Shown here one piece after another: positions 1 through 32,000 of a stretch of DNA of 32,000 nucleotides. The number at the start of each line of letters is the position of its first letter. The first letter of the stretch is position 1. This DNA is from a virus, in the IMG/VR virus record IMGVR_UViG_3300013426_000021, positions 31,669 through 63,668 of that record, one strand, 5' to 3'. The notes beneath the pieces were generated by a model that was not told where the DNA came from, did not search any database, and saw only the letters and a program-made list of their open reading frames with translations. The position numbers and the translations under genes were made by a program.

Positions 1-1851
1 TTCAGTGGCCTTCTCGCGCTCAACCTGATTGAGCCCCATGGTGTAGCCTTTGGCGTACATATCCCAGACTGGATCATCCGGCGGGCACATGGCGAGCAGT
101 TCGTTAACAGAGGGGAGGGGGATATTGGCGGCCTTGTAGGCGGCGGTGTTGATGTTGACGACGGTGACGGAAAGAAGATCGTTTTTTAGATATCCGTATC
201 GATCCGCTGTCGCCCCGTCGATAAAAGCGGCATAAATAGTTCCCTTCTTGCCGGTTTTGCTATTGATACGATAAAGCCCAATTTCCCGGCGGATATCCTG
301 ATCGGTCAGAAGATAGGAGCATGGGCTGGGGGAGATGGAATCGACCATGCCAAGATATTTATTGGACATGCGCAGCTGCTCATGATACTCCTTGGGCACG
401 TAATCGAACGGATCGATGGCTTCGCGGTCTTCATCGTCTTCGGCGTATTTTACATCAAGCTCATACTTTTTCAAGCTGTCAGAGATGGCGTTAGCCGTTT
501 CGAAGGCGACGTTGGTAGAACGGCAATACATCTTCCAGGCGGAAAGCCGTTTGAGCGTGCCAAAGGCGACCATCTGCGCGCTATGCCACTCGCCCATGAC
601 CTCGGCCTGCGCTTTTTCAAACACCTCAACGTTGCCGCAGTTCAAATCCAAATCCGGCATCTGACCGGTGCTCAGGCGCTCTTTGGAAATAAACCGGTCG
701 GGGTACATGGTGACGGGCATCTTCAAGCGATCAACGGAGGAGAAGCCGAGAAGCATATTCGTCAAAAAAGATACACCCGACCCCCTTCCAGATTGGGTTA
801 ACACCCCGCCTTCCCGCTTGGCAGTATCGACAACGCGGTTATCAATAAGAAAATAATCCGAAGTGTTGGTACCGGTAACGGCGTCTGTCTCATACCGGAT
901 CGCTTCTTCGTATTCCGGCCAGCGCTCCTGCGGCACTTCAGCTTTATACTGATCCCACGCCTGATGTACAAGGTCGAGATATTTTTGATTGCGCTCTTCC
1001 TGCGTCATGTCGGGATAAGCCGCGGGGAGCTTGCGGCGTTTACCAAACGAGACATCCTCAAAATCCAGGAAGACGTTTGTGTTTTCCATCGCTTCATTAA
1101 TCTGGGCGACGGACAGAACGCCCTGCGCCTTGAACCTGTCGAGCAAATGCTTTTCAGAGGGATAATCCATATCCCAACCCTCTTCATCTTCATATTTAAG
1201 ATGATGGGACTCAAGCAGCTGATCGCGCAGTTTGGAATCCTCCGGGTAAATGAAATGGGAATCGGTTGCGGCAATGAGCGGGATGTTATACTTGCGATAA
1301 AGATCGAGCACGAGCCGGTTGACATCCTTCTGCTTATCGACGTTATGCGCCTGAACCTCGAGCATGAAGCTGCCGCGGAAATGATCGTTCAAGAGCGTAA
1401 CGAGCCGTTCGGCCTCCTCCGCGCCGTACTTCCAAATACCGCCGACGCAGGCTGTGGTAACGAATACATCCTTCGGATCGAGGGCCATGAGCAGATCCAG
1501 ATCGACGCGGGGGCGATAGTAATAGCCGGTGATATTCGCTTCGGAGAGCGCATAATTCAAATCGCCGACGCCTTTGCGCGTCTTCGCTGCCAGAATGAGA
1601 TGGCAGTTGGATTTGTCTTTTTCGAAGCGGTCCTTGACGAAATAGGCTTCGGTAACATAGCGCCACTTCAGGCCATACTTTTCAGCTAGCTCGGCGCACT
1701 CCCAATAGTTGCCCTGCGTGCCATGGTTACAGGAGGAAAGAACCGTCTGGTTCAGTTCGACGGCGCGCCTGGCGTAATCCTCCATGGTGGCGACGCTGTC
1801 GGCAAGCATGATATTGGAGATGTGATCATGTTTATGATAATTGACGTACAT
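1..1851 (-). CDS. dnaE: DnaE-type DNA polymerase III alpha-like replicase, N-terminal 617 codons (C-terminus lies beyond window start)
   Basis: Frame is open from ATG at 1851 (GGAGGT RBS at 1855-1860) to position 1. It is absent from the ORF track because there is no stop in the window. Hand translation gives MYVNYHKHDHISN (PHP-type His/Asp motif), TGQMPDLDLNCG and YGYLKNDLLSVTVVNI, which resemble the DnaE PDIDxDF and GLLKMDFLGL motifs. Confidence 0.8.
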   Translation of the reverse strand, partial: MYVNYHKHDHISNIMLADSVATMEDYARRAVELNQTVLSSCNHGTQGNYWECAELAEKYGLKWRYVTEAYFVKDRFEKDKSNCHLILAAKTRKGVGDLNYALSEANITGYYYRPRVDLDLLMALDPKDVFVTTACVGGIWKYGAEEAERLVTLLNDHFRGSFMLEVQAHNVDKQKDVNRLVLDLYRKYNIPLIAATDSHFIYPEDSKLRDQLLESHHLKYEDEEGWDMDYPSEKHLLDRFKAQGVLSVAQINEAMENTNVFLDFEDVSFGKRRKLPAAYPDMTQEERNQKYLDLVHQAWDQYKAEVPQERWPEYEEAIRYETDAVTGTNTSDYFLIDNRVVDTAKREGGVLTQSGRGSGVSFLTNMLLGFSSVDRLKMPVTMYPDRFISKERLSTGQMPDLDLNCGNVEVFEKAQAEVMGEWHSAQMVAFGTLKRLSAWKMYCRSTNVAFETANAISDSLKKYELDVKYAEDDEDREAIDPFDYVPKEYHEQLRMSNKYLGMVDSISPSPCSYLLTDQDIRREIGLYRINSKTGKKGTIYAAFIDGATADRYGYLKNDLLSVTVVNINTAAYKAANIPLPSVNELLAMCPPDDPVWDMYAKGYTMGLNQVEREKATE

Positions 1852-1885
1852 AATACCTCCACCCCTTGTTATTTCAAATGAAACA

Positions 1886-1894
1886 TGATATACT
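1886..1894 (+). promoter_or_regulatory. extended -10 promoter (TGATATACT) for the 1928 gene
   Basis: TG-n-TATACT lies 34 nt upstream of ATG 1928. The same TATGATATA-type box recurs upstream of three other plus-strand cassettes. An alternative TATAAT at 1900-1905 is too close to the RBS. Confidence 0.5.
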
Positions 1895-1927
1895 TTGTTT
1901 ATAATGCACGAAAGGACTTGAACGACA

Positions 1928-2833
1928 ATGGTAAAACGATTTGCGGCAGTTGCGCTGAGCATTATGCTTCTGCTTTGCGGCATCGCAAACGCGGAAACGC
2001 TGAAGATGCTGGACACGGGGGACGAAGTGCTTGCGCTGAAAAAGGCGCTGATGGCGGCGGGATATCTGGAAGCGACAGAAGAAACGACGAACGTATTCGA
2101 CAAGGCGACAAAGAACGCCATCGAGGAGCTGCAGAAGGATTTTGAGCTGGAGGAAACGGGAATTGCAACGCCGGAAATACAGGTGATCTGTACGCTGTTG
2201 GGAAAACTTACGGAAACGAAATCAACCGCCGGACAAGAGGAAGCAGATGCCGACATGGTAGTTATGCCGGATGTTTACGGCATAACAGCAGAAGACGCAG
2301 CAGAAGCATTGAAAAAGCTTGGCCTCTATGTTATTTTTACGGAAAGATATGACGACTCGCAAGAAGGAACGGTGTGCTATACCGGTTGTAAACCCGGAGA
2401 GAAACTAAAAAAAGGAAGCAAGGTAATTGTGCGCGTTAGCAAGGGGCCTCGCAGGATTGAATCCAAAGCCAGCACCATTACCTGGTGGCACGTGAAGGGG
2501 TCTAATAGTGATGATTACGAATTTGAAAATCCTTACATTTACGAAGATACGCTCATCATCAAACTTGACGTGACACTCAACTCTGAATACAGCCTGCGTT
2601 GGCGGGGATATGGCACAGCCTGCATTACGGACAGATTTGATAAGACCGTTCCGATAGAGGTAAAGTATGAAAACGAGCAAATCAAAAAGGGCGAAACACA
2701 AGCAGTCACCCTAAGAATCCCTCTGAGAGACCTCGACGTTAAGAAGCCGACAACCTTATCTGTCGAGCTTCAGCTATACCGCGGTAAACAAACCCCGACG
2801 CAAATCCGTCTGGATTTCACAATGACATGGTAA
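1928..2833 (+). CDS. secreted protein with PG_binding_1-like domain, PASTA domain and an unassigned beta-rich C-terminal domain
   Basis: N-terminal signal peptide MVKRFAAVALSIMLLLCGIANA|ET. LDTGDEVLALKKALMAAGYL...ETGIATPE matches a peptidoglycan-binding repeat. VVMPDVYGITAEDAAEALKKLGLYV...GSKVIVRVSKG matches PASTA. AAAGGA RBS, TAA stop. Opposite strand to the backbone. Confidence 0.8.
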   Translation: MVKRFAAVALSIMLLLCGIANAETLKMLDTGDEVLALKKALMAAGYLEATEETTNVFDKATKNAIEELQKDFELEETGIATPEIQVICTLLGKLTETKSTAGQEEADADMVVMPDVYGITAEDAAEALKKLGLYVIFTERYDDSQEGTVCYTGCKPGEKLKKGSKVIVRVSKGPRRIESKASTITWWHVKGSNSDDYEFENPYIYEDTLIIKLDVTLNSEYSLRWRGYGTACITDRFDKTVPIEVKYENEQIKKGETQAVTLRIPLRDLDVKKPTTLSVELQLYRGKQTPTQIRLDFTMTW

Positions 2834-2858
2834 ATGAAAGCACAGCACAAAATGACCA

Positions 2859-2893
2859 TTGACGTTTTGCGCTCCGGCGATGTATGATATAAA
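2859..2893 (+). promoter_or_regulatory. sigma-A type promoter of small gene P1
   Basis: TTGACG (2859-2864), 18-nt spacer, then TATGAT (2883-2888), overlapping TGATATAAA (2885-2893). The homologous box sits upstream of paralogue P2. Confidence 0.55.
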
Positions 2894-2937
2894 TGATATC
2901 CGAGGTAATATTCAGTCCCTCCCAAAGGAGAATGAAT

Positions 2938-3183
2938 ATGAAAAAAGGTATCATTATCACGCTCGCGCTTGTTACATTTCTTGTAGCTGTTTTCAGCTTT
3001 GACATTCCGGCAATATCCGCGCTGGGTATTGCTTAGGCGCTGGAAACATTCCTGCGCAAGTGGGATGGCGCAAGTACAGCCTGTTTGATCGTAAGCCTTT
3101 TAGGAATGTACTCTTCTCTGTTTGGATGGATCGGCGTCGCCCTTGCTGCGCTTGATCTATACCAGACATAGAGGAAACGATGA
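2938..3183 (+). CDS. small 2-3 TM membrane protein P1 (holin-like size), readable only if TAG at 3034 and 3169 is translated
   Basis: GGAG RBS 7 nt before ATG 2938. Product: MKKGIIITLALVTFLVAVFSFDIPAISALGIA-TAG-ALETFLRKWDGASTACLIVSLLGMYSSLFGWIGVALAALDLYQT-TAG-RKR-TGA. The segment after the first TAG is conserved in frame with P2. A terminator follows. Confidence 0.6.
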
Positions 3184-3197
3184 AACAGGCGGAGAAG

Positions 3198-3224
3198 AAG
3201 CCCCCCACGGGGCTTTTTCTTTTA
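3198..3224 (+). terminator. rho-independent terminator after P1
   Basis: Stem AAGCCCC/GGGGCTT (7 bp, loop CCAC) followed by a TTTTTCTTTT run. Confidence 0.7.
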
Positions 3225-3247
3225 TGGGCTGGAATAAACAGACAGAA

Positions 3248-3258
3248 TATGATATACT
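3248..3258 (+). promoter_or_regulatory. extended -10 promoter of small gene P2
   Basis: TATGATATACT (TG-a-TATACT). The 5' leader GATATCCGAG..AATATT.AGTCCCTCC..AAAGGAGAAT is conserved with the P1 leader. Confidence 0.5.
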
Positions 3259-3309
3259 ATCATTGATATCCGAGAAAATATTTAGTCCCTCCCCGAAAGG
3301 AGAATAAAT

Positions 3310-3567
3310 ATGAACAAAGATATCAAAACCAAAGCTGCGCTGTTCTTTGCCGCAGTTAACGTACTGCTGGCGATTGCCGGTCTGTTCTTCCCGCTCGCGT
3401 CGTTATAGACGCTGGCCTGGGCGCTGGCTGGCTTCCTGCAAAAACAGGACGTCGAAACCGCATGCTGTCTCATTGTGGGCCTTTAGGGGATGAGCTTCTC
3501 CGCCTTTGGATGGGTCGGACTCGGCATTGCCGTTGCCGCCCTGATACTGGCGCGGAAAGCGCAATGA
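3310..3567 (+). CDS. small membrane protein P2, paralogue of P1, with in-frame TAG at 3406 and 3484
   Basis: Same RBS spacing as P1. Product: MNKDIKTKAALFFAAVNVLLAIAGLFFPLASL-TAG-TLAWALAGFLQKQDVETACCLIVGL-TAG-GMSFSAFGWVGLGIAVAALILARKAQ-TGA. The first TAG is codon 33, as in P1. Many synonymous differences versus P1 occur downstream of the TAG. Confidence 0.6.
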
Positions 3568-3577
3568 GACGAAGACG

Positions 3578-3609
3578 GAGCCTTGCTACAAGCAGGGCTC
3601 TTTCTTTTT
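3578..3609 (+). terminator. rho-independent terminator after P2
   Basis: Stem GAGCCTTGC/GCAGGGCTC (9 bp with one G-U) followed by TTTCTTTTT. Confidence 0.7.
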
Positions 3610-3642
3610 GCCAATGGCCATTTTGTGCCGTGCTTTACAGAG

Positions 3643-4842
3643 TTAATTTTTCAATTCGACGAGATACTTGACGGTCGTCTGGCATTCCTGATAGACGATG
3701 ATCTCGTCGTTGCGGAGCATTGCCCCTTCATGCGCATGCAGACAGTTCGCGCCAGGACATGCGGCCTGAAGTTTTTCATAGTCGAAGGAGTTATAAGCGC
3801 CGGAGAAAGAATAAACGTCGTACGGTTTGCCGTAGGCGACCTCATACAGTCCCATAAAAGCGCTGTTCTCACTGCCTTTAGCCCAATAAGAACCGGAAAG
3901 GGAAGTGTAACCAAGCGACTTGCGCGCCTTTGTGGCGAAATAGATACCGTAACCGAACATCTTGCCGGTGATAACCGCGTTGGTGGGCTTGAGAACAAGG
4001 CCGCCGGTGAGGATGGACCACCAGTTTTCATTGCGGCTGCCATGCCAGAGCAGCTTGGTAGCGATATGAGCAGGCTCGACATAATTATCGAACGCCTGCT
4101 GGGTACGAAGGTTCCGAACCCGCCACGCCTGACGGAATTTATCGGCGCAGGAACCGAGGCAGGACTTGATTTTAATGATGTCTTCGGGCGTTGCTTCTTC
4201 AAAGACAAGACCGTTCGCCTCGAGGACGGTCTGCTGTACTGGAGCAGTATCGACAACTTTTACCGGCTGCGGGACATAGACCTGACCGCGCATAATATCC
4301 AGCAGATCCTGTTCTCGGCGGATAATATCGCCGAACTGGTCGACCGAAGTGGCCAAATGAGAGCGGACGCTGGCCATGCGGCGGGGAATAATGCCGAACA
4401 ATTCCGACAACAGCAGATTAAAATCATTCAAGCTGCGTTTATCAACCAGCGCGTTCAGCATGAGCTGCGCTTCATCGACCATCGCCATAGTGACCTTGTT
4501 GGACGAGATGGTGTAGTTCTCCGCAACCGCCTGCCGCGCCATTTCTCTCAGCCGGCGGACAATTTCAGCGATGGGTTTCTGCAGGATCGGCCGATAATCA
4601 TCTGTAACAGGCTGTACTTCAATCAGGTCTCGCACAAGCCATGTACGATCAACATACCCTTTGGAAAGCTTTTCGTTGTATTTCTTCTCCCAGTCCCGGA
4701 GGGAGTAAGTCCGACGCTGCGGGCTTGCCCCCACACGACCGTAAGCCGCTTCCCAGACGGAGCCCATCGGGGTCATATCATAATATTTATTATTGTTGGC
4801 GTCGGCGGATATTTTCACCAGCCGCCGCGGTGTGTATTCCAT
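3643..4842 (-). CDS. WGR-domain poly/mono(ADP-ribose) polymerase (PARP1-3-like H-Y-E catalytic domain)
   Basis: N-terminus NNKYYDMTPMGSVWEAAYGRVGAS...KGY matches the WGR domain. A helical middle region follows. The catalytic domain has LLWHGSRNENWWSILTGGL (His), KMFGYGIYFATKARKS (Tyr) and NDEIIVYQECQTTVKYLVELK (Glu). ATG 4842 overlaps the upstream TGA (TGATG). Confidence 0.85.
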   Translation of the reverse strand: MEYTPRRLVKISADANNNKYYDMTPMGSVWEAAYGRVGASPQRRTYSLRDWEKKYNEKLSKGYVDRTWLVRDLIEVQPVTDDYRPILQKPIAEIVRRLREMARQAVAENYTISSNKVTMAMVDEAQLMLNALVDKRSLNDFNLLLSELFGIIPRRMASVRSHLATSVDQFGDIIRREQDLLDIMRGQVYVPQPVKVVDTAPVQQTVLEANGLVFEEATPEDIIKIKSCLGSCADKFRQAWRVRNLRTQQAFDNYVEPAHIATKLLWHGSRNENWWSILTGGLVLKPTNAVITGKMFGYGIYFATKARKSLGYTSLSGSYWAKGSENSAFMGLYEVAYGKPYDVYSFSGAYNSFDYEKLQAACPGANCLHAHEGAMLRNDEIIVYQECQTTVKYLVELKN

Positions 4843-5297
4843 CACAGCGTATACACCACGATATCGACGCGCGTATCATCAAACGTTTCGAGGATCAGCT
4901 CACGAACATCATCCCAGTTCAAACGATCGAGCCCGCAGCCGATGCGCGGCATAGCGAGACGGGTGATTCCACGCTCCTGAATATGCCGGCGGAGATCGAA
5001 CAGAGCGGCTCCAAGCGTTTCAAGCGTGGGTTTTTCATAGCACCGTTCTTTGGTGACGAGGTTATAAACATCCAGCACGGGGAGCGCGCAAGGCCCCCAG
5101 CCTTCAAAATCATACTCGCCGTACATCTGGCGAAGCTTTTCCTTCATATCATACTGGGTATCAATCTGCCTGGCGACGCCAGCGCCCAGAGCAAAATCCG
5201 CGCTGATGCAATGCACAAGCGCCCAGCCGCGGGGCGCGCTAAGCAGATCGCCTTTGATTTCAGAGAATGTCAATTTCGGATTACAGGTTTCGCACAT
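4842..5297 (-). CDS. TARG1/OARD1-like macrodomain ADP-ribosyl hydrolase
   Basis: 151 aa. KGDLL...LVHCISADFALGAGVA, LVTKERCYEKPTLETL, MPRIGCGLDRLNWDDV and C-terminal IVVYTL are nearly collinear with my recollection of human TARG1. GGAGG RBS. Confidence 0.85.
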   Translation of the reverse strand: MCETCNPKLTFSEIKGDLLSAPRGWALVHCISADFALGAGVARQIDTQYDMKEKLRQMYGEYDFEGWGPCALPVLDVYNLVTKERCYEKPTLETLGAALFDLRRHIQERGITRLAMPRIGCGLDRLNWDDVRELILETFDDTRVDIVVYTL

Positions 5298-6958: not shown

Positions 6959-6963
6959 GGAAA

Positions 6964-7824
6964 TTACACAGATAAATACCAGGCCATTACCTCTTCAGGC
7001 GAAGACCACAGATCGTTCGGCAAACCACGTTCGTCCCGCGCTTTCAACATCCGGTCGAACGCGCGAAGATACGCTTCTTCATATTTCGGATATCGTTCAA
7101 AATCGCGCTGGCGATTTTTTACGGAGCCCATCGGGCAACCGATACAGCCGAGCCGGCCATAGCCTTCATCATACAGACGGCAATGCGGAACCTGAACCAC
7201 ATCGTTCAGGAAAGACCAGACTTCCTCTGTCGACCAATCGATGATGGGGTTGACGAGCGTTTTCATGGTACGATAACAAACTTCCACCATACGGCGGGAC
7301 GAATCGTTATCATCGTTCAGGATGATACCGCCCTTCGAGCCTTCATGGAAATCGATGCCGCGCGTTAACGCAATCCGTTTCGCCCTTGCGGGCTGCTGGA
7401 GGATTTCCACAGAGCCGTGCATGGCGGCGCGGCGAGGGCTTTCCGCCCAGCGGACGCCCGTTATTGTAACACGCCCCTACCCGCCGGACTCTTTCAGATC
7501 GGCACAGCAATACCGCGCGCTCCGGGACGGCGGCTTGCCAACGGCGGGAATCAAATTCCACATGGTGATCGGGTTTCCGGCCGCGTTATACGGGATTTCC
7601 CGCGCTACGTCAGGATAATGATCCCGAATGAAACGAACCAGTTCAGGCGGGTCCACGCTTGTGACGCGATAATGCGCATCAAATTTAACGCCGGCCATTT
7701 CGCACAGATGATAAACGCATTGAGAATCTTTGCCGCCGGAGAAGGCGACATAGTACCCCTCTTCGGGCTCGAAGGTACGCAGCTTCAGGAGCGCCGCGTC
7801 GATTTTTCTCTGATCGATCATCAT
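6964..7824 (-). CDS. PAPS reductase/PP-loop family protein (phage DNA-modification-type), single reading frame interrupted by in-frame TAG at 7477-7479
   Basis: Track ORFs 7477..7878 and 6964..7422 are in the same frame. PP-loop AFSGGKDS, then ...RYCCADLKESGG-TAG-GRVTITGVRWAESPRRA...CIGCPMG. The conserved GxRxxES motif lies directly after the TAG. Start ATGATG at 7824 overlaps the upstream TGA. Confidence 0.7.
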
Positions 7825-8693: not shown

Positions 8694-8834
8694 AGTCTGA
8701 ACTTACGGGCGACTGTAAGAGCCGCAAGGCCCCGCAGACAACAAGGCGGGTAACAAATTGCGAAAGCCGGTGGGAGAATTTGGAGGTTTATCGAAAGAAT
8801 GTCAATTTTAATTTCATAGGCGTTGTCCTATTGG

Positions 8835-18764: not shown

Positions 18765-19670
18765 TCAGGAGAACATATGCGACGAAACGATGTCAGAAAG
18801 AACGGAAACAGCAAGATCATAGGGAACAGGTGTAAAAAGAAGTGGTATGGTTATTTTTTCGTAATCTTCACGATAAGCCGCGTTTGCGATAATTTCCTTT
18901 ATGACAGAGATAGCGCTTCCTCGAACGGCGGCGGAGGGGCATACAGTGTGCGGCGCACGTTCCATTCTTACCTGTTCTACAAGCGTGTAAAACGTATCGT
19001 CAAACCGTATGAGCGGTAAAATCTTATAAAGATCATAAAGATGCCGGGAATGCTCGGCTACCCGGCCGGTAAGATAGTAATCACACAGAGCGAATGTCTT
19101 ATCGACAAAGGTTCTTTCTATCGCCTGTACCTTCACTGGAAATGAACCCGCCCCATGCTGACAGACGATGTTCTCAAAACCGTTTCCCAGCAAATAATCG
19201 CTGACAAAACTGGAAACCGGCTTTGTCTCACACGGAAAAGAACGCATGGAAACCATCGTTTCCACCATGAGCCTGCGGCGAAGAAAATCATCTTCAATAA
19301 CAGAAGAATAATCTGCAAGGTAACGATTAAAATCTCTGCGGCTGCGGGTTTCTCCAAGATTAGTGGGAATGGCACTGATTTTCGCAAAGGCAGACACAAT
19401 ATTACGTTTCAACTGTTTCCGTTGGCCCTCCGAGAGGCGGGCATCGCAATCGATATTCAAGTCGATATCCTCTGAAAAACGATCGATTACATGATAGCAT
19501 TTGGAGAGCGAGGTGCCACCCTTAAACACAGCGTTAGGCTGCGACAGAAAAAACGCACGCAGGTATTCCGTCACATAGTAATCCTTTTCAATAATGCTGG
19601 GCAGAATCGCTTTCGCTTCGGCTGTTCGAAGCACCAGCTGCGCAAAGAACTCTCTATCCTCATGTAGCAT
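18765..19670 (-). CDS. abiEii: AbiEii/DUF1814 nucleotidyltransferase toxin (type IV TA / abortive infection)
   Basis: FKGGTSLSKCYHVIDRFSEDIDL is the hallmark AbiEii NTase motif. 301 aa. Overlaps the upstream abiEi by 11 nt. Confidence 0.85.
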   Translation of the reverse strand: MLHEDREFFAQLVLRTAEAKAILPSIIEKDYYVTEYLRAFFLSQPNAVFKGGTSLSKCYHVIDRFSEDIDLNIDCDARLSEGQRKQLKRNIVSAFAKISAIPTNLGETRSRRDFNRYLADYSSVIEDDFLRRRLMVETMVSMRSFPCETKPVSSFVSDYLLGNGFENIVCQHGAGSFPVKVQAIERTFVDKTFALCDYYLTGRVAEHSRHLYDLYKILPLIRFDDTFYTLVEQVRMERAPHTVCPSAAVRGSAISVIKEIIANAAYREDYEKITIPLLFTPVPYDLAVSVLSDIVSSHMFS

Positions 19671-22286: not shown

Positions 22287-22613
22287 TCAATATGAGCCGC
22301 TGCGGCGGCAATCAGGTTTTAGCCGTTCCTCCAATTCCTTCAGTCGTTTTTCAAGAGCGATTCGTTTCTCAATTTCCAGCTCCATACAGCGTTCATGGTA
22401 TTCATACGGAACGAAGCCGGCGCGGACGGAGGCCCTGTAATGCGCGCCGAGCGCAGTTTCATCCGGCGGGGAATCCCAGCCGCAATAGTTGCAGTGATAG
22501 CAATAACCGCTCCGACCATATTCGGAATAGCCCAGCGGACGCAGGGACATCGCTTCGCCGCAGCCGGGGCAGAGGATTTTTCGGGTTCCATTCAGCTGGT
22601 CACCTCCTTTCAA
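22287..22613 (-). CDS. zinc-ribbon protein with C-terminal coiled coil
   Basis: CPGCGE...CYHCNYCGW, then EIEKRIALEKRLKELEERL. Start uncertain: TTG 22613, or a rare CTG after the AAAGGAGGTG RBS. Confidence 0.55.
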   Translation of the reverse strand: MKGGDQLNGTRKILCPGCGEAMSLRPLGYSEYGRSGYCYHCNYCGWDSPPDETALGAHYRASVRAGFVPYEYHERCMELEIEKRIALEKRLKELEERLKPDCRRSGSY

Positions 22614-22826
22614 TCAGCCGATGATCAGATCTTCATTAGCGCGGGCAAGATATTCTTCAAGGAATTCCTCGTTGGAGCAGGGAGCGACGGCGGCGTGCGT
22701 ACGTTCGCGGGTTTCGTCGTCCATCGCCGCGACGACAGCGCCCCAGAGGTTCTGCCTGGCAATTTCGAGGAATGCTTCGCAGACAGACAGGAAAGTGTGA
22801 CCGTTATCCAAGCTGATTTGTTTCAT
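22614..22826 (-). CDS. hypothetical 70-aa protein
   Basis: Start at MKQISLDNG (ATG 22826, AAGGAGG RBS, ATGA overlap with the upstream stop). Confidence 0.55.
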   Translation of the reverse strand: MKQISLDNGHTFLSVCEAFLEIARQNLWGAVVAAMDDETRERTHAAVAPCSNEEFLEEYLARANEDLIIG

Positions 22827-24665: not shown

Positions 24666-24788
24666 GTTTCACGGCACCCTTTTCGCCGTCGACCGTGAAA
24701 CCCGACACGCATAGAGTTAAGCAAAATTGAACCGGGTTTGTCAAATGGGCGGGCAGGATGATTATTACCACATAATTGTTAAAACAAT
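24666..24788 (-). promoter_or_regulatory. regulatory region: candidate promoter plus inverted repeats
   Basis: On the minus strand: TTGACA (24744-24739), 18-nt spacer, weak TTAACT. IR GTTTCACGG/CCGTGAAAC (24666-24674 / 24693-24701) lies in the leader. Palindrome ATTGTTaaAACAAT (24775-24788) lies upstream. Confidence 0.4.
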
Positions 24789-24868
24789 CACATTTAAGCA
24801 AAAAACTTAAGTGAACGAATGGTAATGGTCTTGAGTAGAGTAGGATATATACTTCGTATATAGCGGAC

Positions 24869-25522: not shown

Positions 25523-25551
25523 TTGCACACCTGTTCTACGTATGGTATAAT
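25523..25551 (+). promoter_or_regulatory. strong sigma-A promoter (TTGCAC-17-TATAAT with TG extension)
   Basis: TTGCAC 25523-25528, 17-nt spacer ending in TGG, TATAAT 25546-25551. Confidence 0.7.
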
Positions 25552-25613: not shown

Positions 25614-25895
25614 ATGATAAAGTTGCTCGATAAACATTCTGCGTCGGTTTCACTCATACTTGGATAGACCGGAGCGCTTGCGCCTTTCCCTGTAAACTTT
25701 GCGCTGAATTCAGCTGGGGTCGCCCTCGCGGCACGCGGGGCGATGATTCAGCGCAGCCTGATGGGTTACATCGGGGTAGGGTTGGCGTAGCTCGGGTTTA
25801 TCCCGGCAGAGTGGCTGGCGATTGGACTAATCGTTATTTCCTGGCTGGGATGGTTAGCCGCAATCGCGCCGACAAGGAAGGAATGGGGCGGGTAA
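25614..25895 (+). CDS. small multi-TM membrane protein readable only through in-frame TAG at 25665 and 25788
   Basis: GGGAGGAG RBS 8 nt before the ATG. Product: MIKLLDKHSASVSLILG-TAG-TGALAPFPVNFALNSAGVALAARGAMIQRSLMGYIGVGLA-TAG-LGFIPAEWLAIGLIVISWLGWLAAIAPTRKEWGG-TAA. The stop sits in the loop of a terminator. Confidence 0.6.
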
Positions 25896-25915
25896 CCGTC
25901 CCGTTTTTGTTTTGT
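25885..25915 (+). terminator. rho-independent terminator
   Basis: GGGGCGG-GTAA-CCGTCCC (7 bp with one G-U, GNRA loop) followed by GTTTTTGTTTTGTT. Confidence 0.7.
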
Positions 25916-26708: not shown

Positions 26709-26717
26709 TGTTATAAT
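26709..26717 (+). promoter_or_regulatory. candidate extended -10 promoter (TGTTATAAT) facing copy B
   Basis: TG-t-TATAAT lies 58 nt upstream of ATG 26775. The orientation is ambiguous because the reverse complement also reads as a weak -10 for the 26692 gene. Confidence 0.4.
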
Positions 26718-26807
26718 GTTCATGTCCACGGTTGATGGAAGAAAACGCCGAGCCGTAAGTTTTTAACCAAATTGATGATTTATCTCTTGCGTGGCGTAAC
26801 CTGCGTG

Positions 26808-26936
26808 TTACAAGCTGTAAGCAATTACAGCGGCTTGGTATTTTTGTTCCCGACCGCCGGAGCAACACCTCTCGGCGTCTTGTTACTGGCAGCAATCGCG
26901 ATAGCGCTTGTTGTCTTTGCAGAACTGCACGACCGC
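26808..26936 (+). repeat. copy B of the ~129-nt conserved element (inside candidate ORF 26775..27008)
   Basis: Aligns to 8835..8963. Hairpin GCTGTAA-GCAA-TTACAGC (26814-26831) has 4 compensatory pair changes relative to copy A. Plus-frame peptide LQAVSNYSGLVFLFPTAGATPLGVLLLAAIAIALVVFAELHDR. There is no SD before ATG 26775. Confidence 0.6.
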
Positions 26937-26979
26937 GGCGAACCTCTTCCATCAACGGTGAACATGAACTGTCCACGGC

Positions 26980-27738: not shown

Positions 27739-27987
27739 TCAATTTCCTCCTCGGAATAAAGTTCAGGTTCTTTTACAATGATTACCGCCTACGCTTTGCT
27801 AGGGGTGTTCATTTGCGTACCCTCCTTTGCGGATTGCTGCAAATACCGTGGTTAAAACTACGGTACCCCCATCATCCAGCCGGGCAATATTACCGCCGTC
27901 TATGGGGTATGGTATACCCCGTTTTAAGGCACACCGCATGGGGAAGGGTCTTCCACTTTGGAAACCCCTTGCAATGAATGAGCCTCA

Positions 27988-29061
27988 TTACGCCGAGTGG
28001 TTCAGCTGCTTCCATTTCTTCGCCGGCATGGACAGCACATCATAGCCGATGCTTTCCAGCTCGGAAGCGCGGTCATAGCTGGGCACGTCCTGGCTGAAGC
28101 GGGTGACGGCGTTGCTCAGGCCGTACAAGCTGAGATCGCCGCCATGAATGAGGTAGCTGAGGACGCTCTCGCTTTCCTTTTTGCCAATGGCATATTCCTT
28201 GGCGGTGAGCTCGACGAAGGCGGGGATGCTTTCGGCGGTGATCTTCGCATCGCGGGCTTCCTGCATCATGGCGACCACCTTATCAAACTGCGTCTCATCC
28301 ACAATAGCGCGCACGGTATCACGCACCTTCAGCATGAACGCGCGGTCGTCCGCCGTAATGGTTTCATCCGCATAGAGCGCATAGTCTTCGCCCTGCTGGG
28401 CTTTGGCCCCAATATGACGGCGCTTCTGCGCCGCATCATTTACAACCATGCCGTTGGAACACACCAGCCGATAGACGAGCGGGGAGGCTTCGAAACTGCC
28501 GAGGCCGACCTCCGAATTGGTGATGCAGATACCGGACTGCACGACGTCGCCGGGGGTCACGTCCGCCTGAAGGCGCGGGTTGACGGCTTTGATATACAGC
28601 TTGCGGTCGGTGACCTCGCAGCTGGCGATTTGCACATCCTTGATTTCGCCGAGGATGGGGAGGACGATGTTGGCGATTTCGTAGTTATCGATGCGGCGAT
28701 AACGATCGGAGAGGAAGGCGCGGGCAGTGTTATCCAGCGTGCGCACCATGCGGCGGCGCTCCTTTGCGTCCTCGTCCCGGTGCCGCATCCAGTGGTTGAC
28801 ATTGGTGGCGAGCAGGCCGGGCGCGTCGCTGAGCATCCGGCGATAATAGGGGAGCGGAATGCCCGTCTGCTGGCCGATTTGCTGATGGGCGACTTCGTTG
28901 ACGTGAAAAGCGTAAGCGCTGTTATCGATGTTCAGGCGGACTTCATCGGTTACATCAAGCCCCATGGTGAGCTGCGCGGTATCGACAAGATAGTCGCGCT
29001 TAGCATTGTTCTGGCGTTCGATTTCCTGCGCGAGTTCCATCAGGGTGCGGCCGTACTTCAT
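27988..29061 (-). CDS. DUF932-like phage/plasmid protein
   Basis: 357 aa. The size and the context next to DUF2958 resemble DUF932-family proteins of ICEs, plasmids and phages. Assignment from memory, not motif-exact. Confidence 0.45.
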   Translation of the reverse strand: MKYGRTLMELAQEIERQNNAKRDYLVDTAQLTMGLDVTDEVRLNIDNSAYAFHVNEVAHQQIGQQTGIPLPYYRRMLSDAPGLLATNVNHWMRHRDEDAKERRRMVRTLDNTARAFLSDRYRRIDNYEIANIVLPILGEIKDVQIASCEVTDRKLYIKAVNPRLQADVTPGDVVQSGICITNSEVGLGSFEASPLVYRLVCSNGMVVNDAAQKRRHIGAKAQQGEDYALYADETITADDRAFMLKVRDTVRAIVDETQFDKVVAMMQEARDAKITAESIPAFVELTAKEYAIGKKESESVLSYLIHGGDLSLYGLSNAVTRFSQDVPSYDRASELESIGYDVLSMPAKKWKQLNHSA

Positions 29062-29076
29062 AATTATACGCTCCTA

Positions 29077-29280
29077 TTAGAATGAATATTCATATTCGAC
29101 GTGCAGGATATCCTGCGGTTCGATTTCCAGATCAAGGTCGTCGGTCAGCACAGCGTCCTGATGTTCGAGCACTTCCTCCTTTGCTTTATCGGTGATTTCG
29201 CTGCCGGTCAGGGAATTGTTTTCGTCTTCGACATACACCCGGTAGAACCGGCGGATTTCAACTGTGACTACGTGGGTCAT
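29077..29280 (-). CDS. small highly acidic protein
   Basis: 67 aa with 18 Asp/Glu versus 5 Lys/Arg (hand count). ATGA overlap with the upstream gene. Confidence 0.55.
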   Translation of the reverse strand: MTHVVTVEIRRFYRVYVEDENNSLTGSEITDKAKEEVLEHQDAVLTDDLDLEIEPQDILHVEYEYSF

Positions 29281-29558
29281 TCCGCGAGCGCCTCCTCTTT
29301 TCCGTTCTTCCGTTCCGCGTCATAGGAGAGAACCAGCATCGCGCCGGCGGCCTTATCCTCTTCGGGCACGGTGGGATCGCTCATGCGGCGGCGGATTTCG
29401 GCTTCGAGCGCCCCTTTGGCCGCGACCGCGGCGTTGACGATCAGCTGGCCCTCCTCGTTATCGGTGATTTCGCCGCGCTCGATCTTCTCGAACAGTTCGT
29501 GGTTCTGTTCCAGCTGCTTGATGAGTTCGTAGCACAGGTCGATGAAGTTTTCAGGCAT
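29277..29558 (-). CDS. hypothetical helical protein
   Basis: Start at MPENFIDL (ATG 29558, AAGGAGG RBS), preceded by promoter-like element Y. Confidence 0.55.
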   Translation of the reverse strand: MPENFIDLCYELIKQLEQNHELFEKIERGEITDNEEGQLIVNAAVAAKGALEAEIRRRMSDPTVPEEDKAAGAMLVLSYDAERKNGKEEALAE

Positions 29559-29576
29559 GGGATCGACCTCCTTGGA

Positions 29577-29649
29577 AAATTGTTTTCTCGTATAATAAAG
29601 GGAACATTTGAGCCCCTGTTTTTTCACCTGTGCAAAATTATTTTGCGGA
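29577..29649 (-). promoter_or_regulatory. promoter-like element Y (paralogue of 16524..16596)
   Basis: 18-mer ATAATAAAGGGAACATTT (29592-29609) and GTTTTTTCAC (29618-29627) are identical to X with the same spacing. The element ends 33 nt before ATG 29558. Confidence 0.5.
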
Positions 29650-30615
29650 AATTTGCTTATCGAGCTGGCCGGCGCGGTCGACATGCGGCTTGAGCTCGAC
29701 GATCTTGGCCTTGAGCGCGGATTCCTTTGCCTTCATCTGCTCCAGCTCGGCCTCGGCAGCGATGTATTCTTCCAGCATGCCCTGCAGCTGATAGCGTTCG
29801 CGCAGCTGTTTGCGGAAGCGGCGATCTGCGGCCGCGGCGGTGAGACTCATGTGCGTGATGGCCTTGGGCTGCGCGCCGAGCTTGGTGAGCACGTGCAGGT
29901 AGGACTTGCCGATTTTCTGGGCGATTTCTTCATTGGTATAGCCCTGCTTGCGCAGGATTTCCATGCGTTCCTTCTCGACCTCCGGAGAGGGGAAATTGGA
30001 ATGCTTCAAGTAAGCGTGCGGGTTCTGCTTGCCGGTGTGCGGCGGCTGATAGCGGGCGGGGTTATAGCCCATTTCTTTGGCGGCGTCCCGGATTTTCTGA
30101 ACGGTGGCCGCGGGGAGCCTGTTCGGGGTGGATTCGAGCGCGTTGTATACGGTGCTGACCGCATAGCCGGTGCGCTGGGCGATGTCTTTGGCGGAGACGT
30201 AGCCGGAAGGTTTGCTGCGCTTCTTTTTCCGGCCGGGGATATAGCCAAAGCGTTCTGCGGCGGCGCGGACATAAGCGATGAGCGCGGGGGAACCCTGCGA
30301 GCCGTAGTAATAACTACTTACATTTTGGCGCTTGAAGCCAAGCAACTCTCCCAACTCGGCGAAGGACGCCACAGGGGCGGCAGGTGCCTGGATCTTTTCC
30401 AAATCAGCAATATCCCAGCTTCTTTTCAGCTTTGCCTTGCGTGGATCATAATTCATCTTCCGGGCGACTTCGCGAATTTTATCTGCGTCTGTTCCATTGT
30501 TCCTGCCGGTAAGAACGCAATAGGCGTGGCTCTCGCTGCACCCGACGATTTTCGCGATATCTTCAAGGGTGGTAGGCTTGGAAGTTCCGTTCGCGTTCAC
30601 GTTGACTTTCTGCAT
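29638..30615 (-). CDS. DNA-binding protein with three LacI-type HTH repeats, a fourth HTH and a C-terminal coiled coil; no ligand-binding domain
   Basis: TLEDIAKIVGCSESHAYCVLTGR..KIREVARKMNYDP; SFAELGELLGFKRQNVSSYYYG...AAAERFGYIPG; SAKDIAQRTGYAVSTVYNALES..KIRDAAKEMGYNPA; then GYTNEEIAQKIGKSYLHVLTKLG and a heptad-rich tail. Confidence 0.7.
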   Translation of the reverse strand: MQKVNVNANGTSKPTTLEDIAKIVGCSESHAYCVLTGRNNGTDADKIREVARKMNYDPRKAKLKRSWDIADLEKIQAPAAPVASFAELGELLGFKRQNVSSYYYGSQGSPALIAYVRAAAERFGYIPGRKKKRSKPSGYVSAKDIAQRTGYAVSTVYNALESTPNRLPAATVQKIRDAAKEMGYNPARYQPPHTGKQNPHAYLKHSNFPSPEVEKERMEILRKQGYTNEEIAQKIGKSYLHVLTKLGAQPKAITHMSLTAAAADRRFRKQLRERYQLQGMLEEYIAAEAELEQMKAKESALKAKIVELKPHVDRAGQLDKQISAK

Positions 30616-30639
30616 AATTATAACCTCCGTTTGATTAAT

Positions 30640-30667
30640 AAAAACCGCCGCAGAGTATTTGCGACGG
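30640..30667 (-). terminator. candidate rho-independent terminator
   Basis: On the minus strand: CCGTCGC-aaatactct-GCGGCGG (6 of 7 pairs) followed by TTTTT. Confidence 0.5.
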
Positions 30668-30750
30668 TTACATTAACTGCGCTATTCTTGCTGAATGAAT
30701 GATAGTTTAATTTATTCTGCCCTCCTTGCTTCGTATGTCGGTGTACCGAC

Positions 30751-31101
30751 CTACGCCTCCCATTTCACCTTCTTCGGCTCCGGCATAAACATCACCGCGT
30801 AAACCTTCTCGATCATCTCGCCGCCGGCGAAGTATTTATCCCACACATCGTCGCGGTTCTCTCCCTCGCCGTGCAGCTTGAAGAGCGCGCCGGGGAAACG
30901 CTCGCTGAGCTCAGCCATATCGTCCTCATGGCCGTACCAGCGCCATTCTCCATTCGGCTCCGCGTTAAAGACCTGATCCTGCGGGTCGTAATAGAAGTCG
31001 CCCAGCGGCATATTCAGCTCCTCGATAGCCGCTTCTATCTTTTCAACATCCTGCGCCGCGACATGCAGCGCCTCCATAGAATACGAAGTCAGATAGCCCA
31101 T
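30751..31101 (-). CDS. acid-rich hypothetical protein; the only gene in the window ending in TAG
   Basis: GGAGGA RBS. 116 aa. Stop TAG at 30753-30751 is followed in frame by 12 sense codons (VGTPTYEARRAE) and TAA at 30714-30712. Confidence 0.6.
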   Translation of the reverse strand: MGYLTSYSMEALHVAAQDVEKIEAAIEELNMPLGDFYYDPQDQVFNAEPNGEWRWYGHEDDMAELSERFPGALFKLHGEGENRDDVWDKYFAGGEMIEKVYAVMFMPEPKKVKWEA

Positions 31102-31215
31102 TCTTTGTCCTCCAAGCCCCTGCAGACACAGGGTTTCTCATGCTCTAGTTCGCGGTGTATCCTAACCCCTATCCGGTGCGACATCTTCTCCGCGCTTGTG
31201 CCGCATTAAGGATTC

Positions 31216-31551
31216 TCAGCAAAAAACGGCATCCTCCCCGATCAGGTCTTTCACGACTGCGCCGGCGGGCAGATATAGATCCCGCTCAACGCCCAGACCG
31301 AACGGCGGGAACTTCACTTCTTCCAGCTCCTGCAGGCTGAACCAGCCCCACTCCCAGCCGTAGCCGATGTTGGCAAGGCCGTAGAAATCCCAGCCGCCGT
31401 CGTCGGTACGTTCCGCTTCCGTGACCAGCCATGTGCAGGTGCCGCCGCCGAAGAACTTGACCAGCACCTGTGCGCCTTTGCCTTCGCCGTCCTGCGAGCC
31501 AAACGGATATTTTTCCAGCCGGCGTTCGATTTCTTTTGTGATGAGCTTCAT
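31216..31551 (-). CDS. DUF2958-family protein
   Basis: MKLITKEIERRLEKYPFGSQDG...VLVKFFGGGTCTWLVTE...FYGLANIGYGWEWGWFSLQELEEVK...GVERDLY matches the DUF2958 pattern. GGAGGG RBS. TAATG overlap. Confidence 0.75.
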   Translation of the reverse strand: MKLITKEIERRLEKYPFGSQDGEGKGAQVLVKFFGGGTCTWLVTEAERTDDGGWDFYGLANIGYGWEWGWFSLQELEEVKFPPFGLGVERDLYLPAGAVVKDLIGEDAVFC

Positions 31552-31937
31552 TATTTTCCCTCCACGTTGAATTTGATTTCGGTCGGCTCTACGGTCAGCC
31601 CGTATTCGTTGCAGCACCATTCCACCAGCTGCGGGGCGAGCTGTTCCGCATTGGCACAAGCTTCTATCGCCCGCTTCTTGGATTGGCGCGGCACTTCCAG
31701 CAGCAAATGTTTAATGCCTGAGCCGAGGAAACAACTTACCACGTGCCCATACTCATATTCCGGCGTGGCGTGCAGGTAATAGCCGCGGGGTTCGTTCTTG
31801 TAGGTGAAACAGTTGGTTCCGCCCAAATTATAGATCACGGAGAGCCGGATACGGTTGGTCTTGGCATCCACCATGCGCGCATTGCGCGCCTTACTGATAT
31901 CCACGCCCGCAACGGGCACGCAGCACTCAATTCTCAT
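31551..31937 (-). CDS. hypothetical protein
   Basis: 128 aa. The ATG overlaps the upstream stop. No motif recognised. Confidence 0.5.
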   Translation of the reverse strand: MRIECCVPVAGVDISKARNARMVDAKTNRIRLSVIYNLGGTNCFTYKNEPRGYYLHATPEYEYGHVVSCFLGSGIKHLLLEVPRQSKKRAIEACANAEQLAPQLVEWCCNEYGLTVEPTEIKFNVEGK

Positions 31938-32000
31938 TCGCCGGTTCCTCCTTCTTCGCGATACGCCGCTGTTCGCGCGCTTCCTTAATGCGCAGGGCGC
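31927..32000 (-). CDS. 3' end of an upstream gene (partial)
   Basis: Frame ...LRIKEAREQRRIAKKEEPANEN-TGA is open to the window edge and overlaps ATG 31937. Confidence 0.4.
   Translation of the reverse strand, partial: ALRIKEAREQRRIAKKEEPANEN

Follow-up and report, generated by a model that had tools for sequence, protein, structure and literature searches.

A putative amber-suppression gate encoded by an SPbeta-like temperate phage for a subset of its genes

In the stretch of 32,000 nt analyzed here (the window), a small number of genes are interrupted by in-frame TAG codons that are conserved among relatives, and near-identical strains of the same phage encode a tRNA with the matching CUA anticodon. 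From the sequence we consider it quite probable that the phage uses amber suppression as a gate on selected genes, and not whole-genome recoding. A 117 kb metagenome contig (ENA ERZ27300206:k119_58561) contains the window at 100% identity. The stretch belongs to an SPbeta-like temperate phage of ~117-119 kb, of which it forms the early and replication region; the phage has a GC content of ~52% and TGA as its commonest stop codon; relatives point weakly to what is probably a gut Clostridia lineage as its host. With SPbeta-like phages of Bacillota it shares YonB- and YomX-like structural proteins, a large serine recombinase, genes for nucleotide metabolism, a replicase of the Pol III alpha type, and a genome of ~120-135 kb, a similarity limited to matches at the Pfam level. 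To our knowledge, SPbeta itself has not been reported to carry in-frame TAG or a suppressor tRNA.

In-frame TAG codons in small membrane proteins and enzymes

The seven core in-frame TAGs listed in the first-pass annotation were all present and fall in three small membrane-protein genes, termed smA, smB, and smC, and in a PAPS-reductase-family gene (Table 1). A GGAG-type ribosome-binding site could be read from the sequence in front of each of the three small genes, and the hairpin and T-run of each are located 3' of the final TGA or TAA, not 3' of the first TAG. The terminators of smB and smC were scored by the scan on the coding strand; for the smA hairpin, which the scan scores on the minus strand only, the plus-strand reading (GCCCC...GGGGC then TTTTTCTTTT) was made by eye. 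Codon 33 is TAG in both smA and smB, which are paralogs of ~35% identity. smA is unchanged across 6 related contigs, and a variant haplotype of smC present in 4 contigs retains both TAGs despite 9 substitutions, 7 of which lie within 30 nt of the first TAG. The smB ortholog in a more distant relative, L019, also keeps both TAGs, and its best-conserved stretch is downstream of them. Counting against read-through, the substitutions downstream of the TAG in smB orthologs show no clear third-codon-position bias, although their number is small.

Table 1 Features in the window, with positions counted from its first nucleotide
Feature	Position	Strand	Remarks
PG_binding_1 + PASTA cell-wall-binding protein gene	1928..2833	+	immediately 5' of smA/smB, same strand; no TAG
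Promoter-like site upstream of smA	2859..2888	+	TTGACG-18-TATGAT
smA, small membrane-protein gene	2938..3183	+	81 codons; final TGA at 3181
smA in-frame TAGs	3034-3036, 3169-3171	+	codons 33 and 78
smA hairpin, read as terminator	3189..3208		just after TGA
Promoter-like site upstream of smB	3235..3263	+	inside direct repeat common to the smA and smB upstream regions
smB, small membrane-protein gene	3310..3567	+	85 codons; final TGA at 3565
smB in-frame TAGs	3406-3408, 3484-3486	+	codons 33 and 59
smB intrinsic terminator	3577..3601	+	after TGA
PAPS-reductase-family gene	6964..7824	-	TAG at 7477-7479, codon 115-116
Promoter-like site upstream of smC	25524..25551	+	extended -10 type; sequence scan
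smC, small membrane-protein gene	25614..25895	+	93 codons; final TAA at 25893
smC in-frame TAGs	25665-25667, 25788-25790	+	codons 18 and 59
smC intrinsic terminator	25879..25908	+	overlaps TAA
Gene ending in TAG	30712..31101	-	TAG at 30751-30753; in-frame back-up TAA at 30712-30714, 12 codons downstream

In the PAPS reductase gene, the TAG directly precedes the invariant motif TGVRWAES. Both Pfam PAPS_reduct (PF01507, residues 24-230) and phrog_424 (10-266) cross it, and its column is an ordinary sense position in the 35 homologs that cover the site; code-11 callers nevertheless break the gene into 115 and 152 aa in every related contig. Just left of the window, RuvC (14-158) and RemA-like (6-78) Pfam domains also cross a TAG, and a Grx-like gene contains one inside its likely domain, for which Pfam support is sub-threshold only. 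Full-length homologs align over the TAG positions without interruption. Homologs thus treat these positions as sense codons inside intact domains, and the gene ends or decayed pseudogenes that the first-pass annotation had named as counting against its reading were not what we found.

The TAGs are the same in all strains at 97-100% identity. In L019, at 75-81% DNA identity, all 5 comparable TAGs (one each in the RemA-, RuvC-, and Grx-like genes and two in smB) occupy the same codon, against a background codon identity of 0.46 overall and 0.40 for conserved Leu, and the RuvC TAG is present even in L024, whose protein is ~45% identical. No exchange with synonymous codons such as CAG or CAA was seen among relatives. 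Pseudogenes and artifacts are excluded by this invariance among strains together with the retention of 5 of 5 TAGs in L019.

Standard-code callers annotate the TAGs as genuine stops in all public contigs, which would make the enzymes recent pseudogenes or two-piece proteins and the small genes peptides of 17-32 aa, and we found no tRNA gene within the 32,000-nt window itself. This reading is largely refuted, and we regard it as very unlikely: in addition to the codon-for-codon retention in L019, the reading frames flanking the TAGs on each side are open and conserved, and the genes split within a recognized or likely domain (PAPS reductase, RuvC-like, RemA-like, and Grx-like) are always split by TAG, with no TAA or TGA interrupting a domain among the split genes found. 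Catalytic residues of the RuvC-like protein lie on either side of its TAG, both PAPS reductase fragments would lose the TGVRWAES motif, terminators come after the long open reading frames and not after the first TAG, and the phage encodes a cognate suppressor.

A CUA-anticodon tRNA and the residue it may insert

The first-pass annotation had proposed scanning the full contig for a CUA-anticodon tRNA, which is the decisive check, and we found one on near-identical strains of the same phage (97-99.9% identity to the window), ~18.5 kb beyond the right end of the window. It is the last of a six-tRNA cluster (L030:18597-18673) that lies between the gene of a peptidoglycan-binding (endolysin-like) protein and the terminase/structural operon; the same cluster is present in L031, L032, L038, and L039, and four assemblies carry the tRNA(CUA) with 100% identity. 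The ~90 kb of phage sequence examined contained no release-factor or synthetase gene. The tRNA(CUA) folds as a canonical cloverleaf with G18G19, a T-psi-C loop, a 5-nt variable loop, and an anticodon arm of normal length comprising 4 base pairs plus a C31/C39 mismatch.

ARAGORN labels this tRNA 'Pyl', and frozen TAG positions would be expected where no synonymous codon exists, as would be the case if TAG encoded pyrrolysine or another non-standard residue through a host Pyl-type system. The label, however, is given from the anticodon alone. Genuine tRNA-Pyl has an atypical fold, unlike the canonical cloverleaf and normal-length anticodon arm seen here. In addition, the Pfam lists for ~90 kb of phage include no PylS, PylB, PylC, or PylD family, no in-frame TAG occurs in the host-flank genes beside integrated relatives, and the TAG columns in homologs are ordinary, variable, or aliphatic positions. 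A pyrrolysine-type code is therefore scarcely credible for this phage.

The evidence instead leans toward Leu or another aliphatic residue over Gln, on the combined strength of homolog columns, membrane context, and Leu-like tRNA architecture. When the five homolog columns were summed, Q scored -2.6 bits and L +1.45 bits, although the columns are few. The tRNA(CUA) has G1-C72 and A73, as opposed to U1-A72 and G73 in the reference tRNA-Gln genes, and combines its A73 discriminator with a Leu-type D-arm (3-bp stem and 11-nt loop with AAUUGGCAGA); its anticodon loop resembles that of Gln(CUG). In ARAGORN bracket architecture it equals the 77-nt tRNA-Leu(UAA) of phage Stitch, and the two tRNA-Leu genes rank as the top 2 by similarity among 33 reference tRNAs, a set drawn from an enterobacterial phage and not from a Clostridia one. 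The long (class II) variable arm typical of bacterial tRNA-Leu is missing; the annotated 77-nt phage tRNA-Leu, which also has a 5-nt loop, is a precedent for the short arm. The first-pass annotation rightly left the amino acid undeduced; the usual Gln that it mentioned is not favored by either the columns or the tRNA features. A more specific proposal, in which UAG is read as Leu or another aliphatic residue by a tRNA-Leu-like suppressor with a short variable arm and serves, at frozen positions, to gate a resolvase and toxic membrane proteins, is a serious but still tentative candidate.

Extent of TAG use across the phage

Our own gene call in the window returned 22 TGA, 16 TAA, and 2 TAG stops, in agreement with the earlier tally of 26, 18, and 1. 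One of the two called TAGs is the internal PAPS reductase site, which leaves a single genuine TAG terminator, at 30751. The first-pass annotation had offered this codon as a candidate sense TAG; the simplest view is that it truly terminates the gene, with the TAA as back-up. Two other candidates are not supported: the plus-strand open reading frame containing 8817 has a coding score under threshold and no family match, and lies antisense to a well-supported minus-strand gene, and that at 27789 is a short, out-of-frame upstream open reading frame overlapping an Ant-like gene. In addition to the 1 TAG terminator among ~39 window genes, there are three or four more among the flanking early genes, and one relative has its serine recombinase gene terminated by TAG as well.

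In-frame TAG is sparse: across ~90 kb, some 15-20 genes contain it, each with 1-4 copies. Most of these genes encode small membrane or holin-like proteins, and the remainder a few enzymes and regulators, among them the PAPS reductase, the RuvC-like protein (a resolvase), the RemA-like protein (a regulator), and the Grx-like protein, which resembles glutaredoxin. The expected concentration of recoding in late or lysis genes was borne out for lysis-associated and small membrane proteins, but not for the structural genes, and some early/middle enzymes carry TAG.

A full change to code table 15, under which TAG would be an ordinary Gln codon in late infection and its sparseness would reflect the parts of the genome read, has strong precedent (Borges et al. 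preprint 10.1101/2021.08.26.457843; PMC10607447; PMC9523058). It would account for the in-frame TAGs, the phage tRNA(CUA), the few TAG terminators, and the TAGs in lysis-associated membrane proteins, and ~27 kb of the genome lies outside the sequence examined. Nonetheless, we judge it improbable. The terminase, the probable portal and capsid, and ~10 other late genes contain one TAG altogether, which lies outside the three genes named; the integrase and the majority of the replication genes also lack TAG. Treating TAG as sense instead of stop hardly alters coding density, raising the coding total from 40,995 to 41,295 nt in 48.7 kb, and the late operon is nearly intact when called under code 11. 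TAG is the terminator of several genes, the serine recombinase and early genes among them; the TAG positions are frozen without synonymous swaps; and Gln is not favored by the informative columns or by the tRNA. The first-pass annotation had left open a reassigned code or an amber switch. A suppressor-driven switch fits better, because TAG is used sparingly, does not occur in the structural genes seen, and remains the terminator of a few genes; the tRNA(CUA) has now been found, and the reassigned code fits less well.

A proposed translational gate and its relation to known systems

Under the suppression gate that we favor, host RF1 would halt translation at UAG when the suppressor is absent, leaving short, inactive N-terminal peptides. 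Once the phage tRNA(CUA) has built up, charged by a host synthetase, read-through would give full-length proteins. Since full-length product would appear only after the tRNA(CUA) accumulates, TAG would act as a translational gate or timer on chosen genes, many of them plausibly toxic, and not as a genome-wide new sense codon. We infer that the tRNA(CUA) reads these TAGs, and the expression timing, read-through efficiency, and gating purpose are likewise put forward as putative. A simple 'late gene' timer is too neat, because the RuvC-, RemA-, and Grx-like and PAPS reductase genes that carry TAG sit on the minus strand among early/middle genes.

Stop-codon-recoded gut phages with suppressor tRNAs include crAss-like and Lak phages and the Garnet and Topaz prophages (Borges et al. 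preprint 10.1101/2021.08.26.457843; Peters et al. PMC9523058). Our phage resembles them in having in-frame TAG in a host with the standard code, its own tRNA(CUA), an enrichment of TAG in lysis-associated transmembrane proteins, an integrase/recombinase without internal TAG, and a proposed post-transcriptional gate on lytic functions, and it shares a temperate lifestyle with Garnet and Topaz. In contrast to these phages, for which the published model begins from low GC, its GC is ~52% and TGA is its commonest stop; its TAGs are rare, absent from the large structural genes seen, and frozen in position, whereas theirs occur in structural as well as lysis genes and exchange with CAG/CAA. Its suppressor is Leu-like and not Gln-like in the acceptor and D-arm, and no release-factor or synthetase gene accompanies it in the ~90 kb examined. 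phAss-1 ('Phassvirus'), of a group of ~136 kb gut phages of Eubacteriales, carries 2-3 tRNA-Sup(CTA) genes and has TAG, read as Gln, in about 40 ORFs (~40% of annotated ORFs), among them terminase, portal, and other virion genes (PMC10607447). Our phage is likewise large, probably Clostridia-associated, and of the kind that carries its suppressor within a tRNA cluster; both lack a dedicated synthetase (here in the ~90 kb examined) and have TAG in genes for holins and for DNA processing or nucleotide metabolism, for example dUTPase. Unlike in phAss-1, the terminase and probable portal here lack TAG and Gln is not favored. No sequence relationship to phAss-1 was found: in the phage collection, which does not include the BK accession sought, megablast gave no matches and tblastn no close ones.

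The arrangement also recalls laboratory amber genetics. With E. coli supE or supP and lambda Sam7, an amber codon in a holin or other essential gene makes expression suppressor-dependent, and supP is a Leu-inserting amber suppressor derived from tRNA-Leu CAA, possible because LeuRS ignores the anticodon. The present system, unlike those, occurs in nature and is retained throughout a family of phages, and amber codons and suppressor are both carried by the phage. TAG is Leu in genetic codes 16 and 22 of chlorophycean mitochondria. If the Leu reading is right, a tRNA-Leu(CUA) reading TAG would be common to both, although those codes are organellar and genome-wide and the putative Leu reading here is phage-borne, sparse, and probably conditional. 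A limited literature search turned up no phage for which amber is reported to be read as a residue other than Gln.

Phage stop-codon recoding as a means of regulating lytic genes has been proposed largely from genomics. With few TAGs, frozen among relatives diverged by 20-55%, and a matching tRNA supplied by the phage, this family offers a clean test case; because the codons are few and frozen and early expression of the genes bearing them would plausibly be harmful, the regulatory-gate hypothesis is directly testable. Standard-code annotation breaks up or overlooks the TAG-bearing genes in every public copy. Amber suppression appears able to arise in a mid-GC, TGA-rich phage, outside the proposed low-GC route, and, if the Leu reading is true, phage recoding would extend beyond Gln and Trp.

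TAG codons inside genes

The first-pass annotation of the window had proposed that TAG serves as a sense or read-through codon, through either a reassigned code or an amber-suppression switch, and had placed seven core TAGs in frame within genes; all seven were confirmed at their positions. They lie in three small membrane-protein genes, smA, smB and smC, and in a PAPS reductase gene (see table). smA and smB are tandem paralogues on the + strand, against the orientation of the neighbouring genes; both have a GGAG ribosome-binding site and a site resembling a promoter. Past the final TGA of smB, a hairpin with a T-run was scored by scan as a + strand terminator; the hairpin past the final TGA of smA was scored on the - strand only, and its + strand T-run was read by eye from the sequence. 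Codon 33 is TAG in both genes, and the second TAG of smB aligns with a Leu codon (TTA) in smA. smC has a similar build, and the TAG of PAPS reductase stands directly before the invariant TGVRWAES motif, with Pfam and PHROG matches that cross it.

The smA-smB cassette is bracketed exactly by a 25-nt inverted repeat (92% complementary), one arm of which lies just past the stop of a PASTA gene and the other just past the smB terminator. The right arm recurs behind the smB orthologue of L019, a relative with 75-81% DNA identity that carries neither smA nor the PASTA gene. The repeat may delimit a cassette that is mobile or invertible, or may reflect an RNA structure formed over a long range.

Coordinates of features in the window and in related sequences
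Feature	Sequence	Coordinates	Strand	In-frame TAGs
smA	window	2938-3183	+	
smB	window	3310-3567	+	two
smC	window	25614-25895	+	two
PAPS reductase	window	6964-7824	-	one
Inverted repeat arms	window	2837-2861 / 3612-3636		
Pol III alpha, without intein	window	<1-~1860	-	
Pol III alpha, with intein	L008, L010, L011, L012	(5413-9924)		
WGR/PARP protein	window	3643-4845	-	
Gene with weak AcrIC5 match	L001 (window)	18909-19121 (~22431-22643)	-	
~90-100 nt repeat	window	~24762-24862		
~90-100 nt repeat	L001	64-152 and 261-362		
Two small membrane-protein ORFs	L030	17209-18060	-	one; two
tRNA(CUA)	L030	18597-18673		
tRNA-Leu(UAA)	L037 (Salmonella phage Stitch)	1487-1563		

The stop-codon tally of the annotation agreed with our gene call of the window (22 TGA, 16 TAA and 2 TAG), in which one of the two TAGs is the internal PAPS reductase site. 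Of its three additional candidates, those at 8817 and 27789 lie within no supported gene; for the one at 30751 the simplest reading is a genuine terminator, backed up by a TAA 12 codons further on. Counted as a trinucleotide over the whole window, TAG is strongly asymmetric between the strands, with 200 copies on the + strand versus 70 on the - strand, which carries most of the coding sequence and has 309 TAA and 528 TGA; TAG is thus depleted on the coding strand as an all-frame trinucleotide and not only as a terminator.

Four lines of sequence evidence point to these TAGs being read through. Further cases lie close to the window on its outside. A RuvC-like gene, split by the caller into 58 + 107 aa, has a Pfam RuvC match that spans residues 14-158, with the catalytic Asp before the TAG and Glu/Asp residues after it; a RemA-like gene, called as 33 + 91 aa, has a Pfam RemA-like match over residues 6-78, and a glutaredoxin-like (Grx-like) gene has a CPMC motif before its TAG and a Pfam score below the curated threshold. 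The interruptions are always TAG, never TAA or TGA, and the TAGs are invariant among strains; a diverged smC haplotype keeps both, with nine substitutions, seven of which fall within 30 nt of the first TAG. In L019, the TAGs of the RemA-, RuvC- and Grx-like genes and the two of smB occupy the identical codon amid differing adjacent residues, a retention of 5/5 versus a background codon identity of 0.46 (0.40 for conserved Leu codons; p ~0.02 to 0.005). The RuvC TAG is kept even in L024, a more diverged relative (~45% protein identity), and the best-conserved part of smB (20/21 residues) lies downstream of both of its TAGs. Pseudogenes, assembly errors and production of a short peptide only are ruled out by the domain spanning, the TAG-only interruption, the strain invariance and the frozen codons in L019. 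In homologues, the TAG positions correspond to ordinary sense positions within intact domains, and not to gene ends or decayed genes. An all-frame search of TAG versus sense codons was dominated by non-coding frames, and its entries in verified genes alone were used; a symmetric coding-score test around TAA, TAG and TGA was discarded as insensitive, having missed the PAPS reductase site and returned mainly in-frame gene junctions.

The phage, its relatives and its host

The window (GC ~52%) is an early/replication module encoded nearly all on the - strand. Pfam and PHROG scans identified genes for Pol III alpha, ATP-dependent ligase, PD-(D/E)XK exonuclease, primase-helicase, SSB, a PARP/WGR protein, PAPS reductase, a DUF2828 protein, a sigma-like factor, a DUF932 protein, a tyrosine integrase and three Bro-N/ANT anti-repressor-like proteins. 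The PARP/WGR protein (400 aa, WGR and PARP catalytic domains; Pfam E = 1e-21; phrog_23333) is a poly/mono-ADP-ribosyltransferase-like enzyme amid the replication genes. Pol III alpha has 1058 aa in the window's strain and 1503 aa, including an intein (PF14890), in some other strains; in the more distant L026 it is called as two parts, again with an intein match. A 70-aa gene weakly matches PF22147 (AcrIC5, an anti-CRISPR family), and its neighbour matches DUF551. Repeats of ~90-100 nt, 80-84% identical, occur in the intergenic region between an Ant-like gene and the next gene of the window and in a non-coding stretch of ~1.9 kb ahead of the early operon (contig L001); they could represent operators or promoters present in several copies.

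By megablast the window matched no GenBank phage and no E. coli genome, its exact 42-mers had 0 matches in IMG/VR and GTDB genomes, and no relatives came from protein-pattern scans of GTDB or of IMG/VR, the latter with the DUF2828 protein and an aligned 265-aa early protein. A JGI metagenome scan yielded a 1.6 kb fragment only, protein P0151 occurred on short contigs only, and a chimeric query for homologues into which the hydrophobic small proteins had been built gave no hits. Exact-protein look-ups identified the ENA contig ERZ27300206:k119_58561 (117,027 bp), which contains the window at 100% identity, and the same phage at 97-100% identity in dozens of assemblies, on contigs of ~110-119 kb, several of them circularly permuted. 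Reading outwards from the window, we covered ~71 kb of the 97-99.9% identical strain k119_74479 and ~21 kb more from the 75-81% relative L019/L034. The remainder, as read, carries nucleotide-metabolism genes (NrdD, ThyX, dUTPase and SHMT), a large serine recombinase, a SpoIID-SH3 lysin, discoidin-domain tail-fibre genes, and a terminase with a YonB/YomX-type (SPbeta-like) structural operon. MT835470.1 (117 kb), whose NrdD is 57% identical to P0200, was rejected as a full-length relative; it has 36% GC, almost no common proteins and no tRNAs.

Five distant relatives (L015-L018 and L021) adjoin ordinary bacterial genes, and one of their protein clusters bears NCBI names from 'Candidatus Aphodomonas sp.' and 'Clostridiales bacterium' MAGs (Clostridia, Eubacteriales); these relatives hint at a host among the Clostridia. 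Chromosomal MatE, MarR, Metallophos and sugar-metabolism genes flank their diverged early region, and in L021 the AEP gene is truncated, with resolvase and DDE transposase fragments behind it; these copies look integrated and partly decayed. A HipA/HTH toxin-antitoxin pair lies within the early region of L015 and L016. A split MatE gene in the host flanks, considered as a sign of a recoded host, is interrupted by a frameshift and not by TAG, and a recoded host was therefore rejected.

A tRNA with anticodon CUA and the residue it may insert

No tRNA and no Rfam family was found in the window or in the first ~50 kb read. Strain k119_74479 carries, ~18.5 kb right of the window (window orientation) and beyond an AEP primase-polymerase gene, a six-tRNA cluster between a gene for a peptidoglycan-binding (endolysin-like) protein and the terminase operon. 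The cluster comprises Ser-GCU, Met-CAU, Gly-UCC, Thr-UGU, Ala-UGC and a 77-nt tRNA with anticodon CUA, so that the suppressor anticipated by the first-pass annotation is present on near-identical strains of the phage. Three other assemblies contain the cluster, with the suppressor sequence identical in 4/4. The ARAGORN label 'Pyl' derives from the anticodon alone and was set aside; the tRNA folds as a canonical cloverleaf, has G18G19 and a T-psi-C loop, and its CCA end is encoded. A BLAST of the suppressor against phages gave no informative match. In L030, a contig with the tRNA(CUA), two paralogous small membrane-protein ORFs lie between or overlapping the tRNA genes, on the strand opposite to the cluster, and begin MKT-TAG-RILLV... 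and MNT-TAG-KKLFV-TAG-LLCL..., respectively. The first is antisense to, and overlaps, tRNA-Ser; for the second, a promoter close to consensus (TTTACA-18-TATAAT with TG) and the ribosome-binding site AAGGAGG are present.

The homologous residues at the TAG columns are L, L, F, F and F for the RuvC-like protein (I or F in L026, where the alignment is ambiguous); I and I in L024 and L026, and I in the Geobacillus RemA structure, for the RemA-like protein; L in smA for the second smB TAG; K13, D5, E5, R3, G2, Q1 and six single residues for PAPS reductase; and E and G for the Grx-like protein. BLOSUM-based scores, added up across all five columns, come to L +1.45, I +1.19, E -1.7, K -2.1 and Q -2.6 bits, which favours Leu over Gln by ~16:1 but is no more than suggestive. 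The context is clearly hydrophobic (mean Kyte-Doolittle >1) at 10 of the 17 small-protein TAGs, one of which lies in a signal-peptide core.

The features of the suppressor are mixed. Both its acceptor (G1-C72, G2-U71, G3-C70 and A73) and its arms (3-bp D-stem, 11-nt D-loop CAAUUGGCAGA and 5-nt variable loop) are Leu-like. When the suppressor was compared with 33 labelled tRNAs, 28 from the T5-like enterobacterial phage Stitch and five from the studied phage, the two tRNA-Leu genes ranked first and second, and its ARAGORN architecture is the same as that of the Stitch tRNA-Leu(UAA). The latter, as annotated, is only 77 nt long and class-I-shaped, and its variable loop has 5 nt, which sets a helpful precedent for phage Leu tRNAs with short arms. 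LeuRS does not read the anticodon. The anticodon loop of the suppressor (UUCUAAU) and its 31/39 mismatch resemble Gln(CUG) tRNAs. We give Leu or another aliphatic residue an even chance of being inserted at TAG and consider Gln possible though doubtful, with the rest of the probability falling to other residues.

Selective use of TAG across the genome

The late operon as read, whose ~13 genes comprise terminase, the probable portal and capsid genes and others, has one in-frame TAG, in a 93-aa ORF, and the tyrosine integrase has none; when TAG is treated as sense, coding sequence grows by only ~300 nt in 48.7 kb. The serine recombinase gene ends in TAG, as do a few early genes; at the recombinase and at 30751, a back-up stop follows a few codons later. 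It is concentrated, at 1-3 per gene, in small membrane or secreted proteins. These are smA, smB and smC, three ORFs for small membrane proteins located within or next to the tRNA cluster, in which codon 3 or 4 is TAG, 104-aa and 64-aa proteins directly downstream of the SpoIID-SH3 lysin, and a secreted protein with TAG within its signal peptide. All are orphan families except the 104-aa protein (phrog_4105, function unknown).

The in-frame TAGs are real and the interpretation in the first-pass annotation is supported, with the suppression switch the better of its two options; sparse TAG, TAG-poor structural genes and continued termination at TAG speak against a general reassigned code. Because TAG is sparse, biased to membrane proteins and frozen in position, a gate on selected genes fits better than a general sense codon. 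Suppression of UAG by the phage tRNA would constitute this gate, whose purpose and timing we infer.

In-frame TAG with phage suppressor tRNAs is established in gut phages, temperate ones among them, where TAG is taken as Gln, the alternative code is used in structural and lysis genes, and TAG is enriched in lysis-related transmembrane proteins (Borges et al. preprint 10.1101/2021.08.26.457843; PMC9523058; PMC10607447; PMC11210395). In contrast, the family studied here is mid-GC and TGA-rich, its TAGs are sparse and frozen in position, the structural genes seen stay in the standard code, and its suppressor has Leu-like acceptor and D-arm features. A limited literature search found no report of a phage amber codon read as Leu. 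The family offers a good experimental system for asking why stop codons are recoded in phages.
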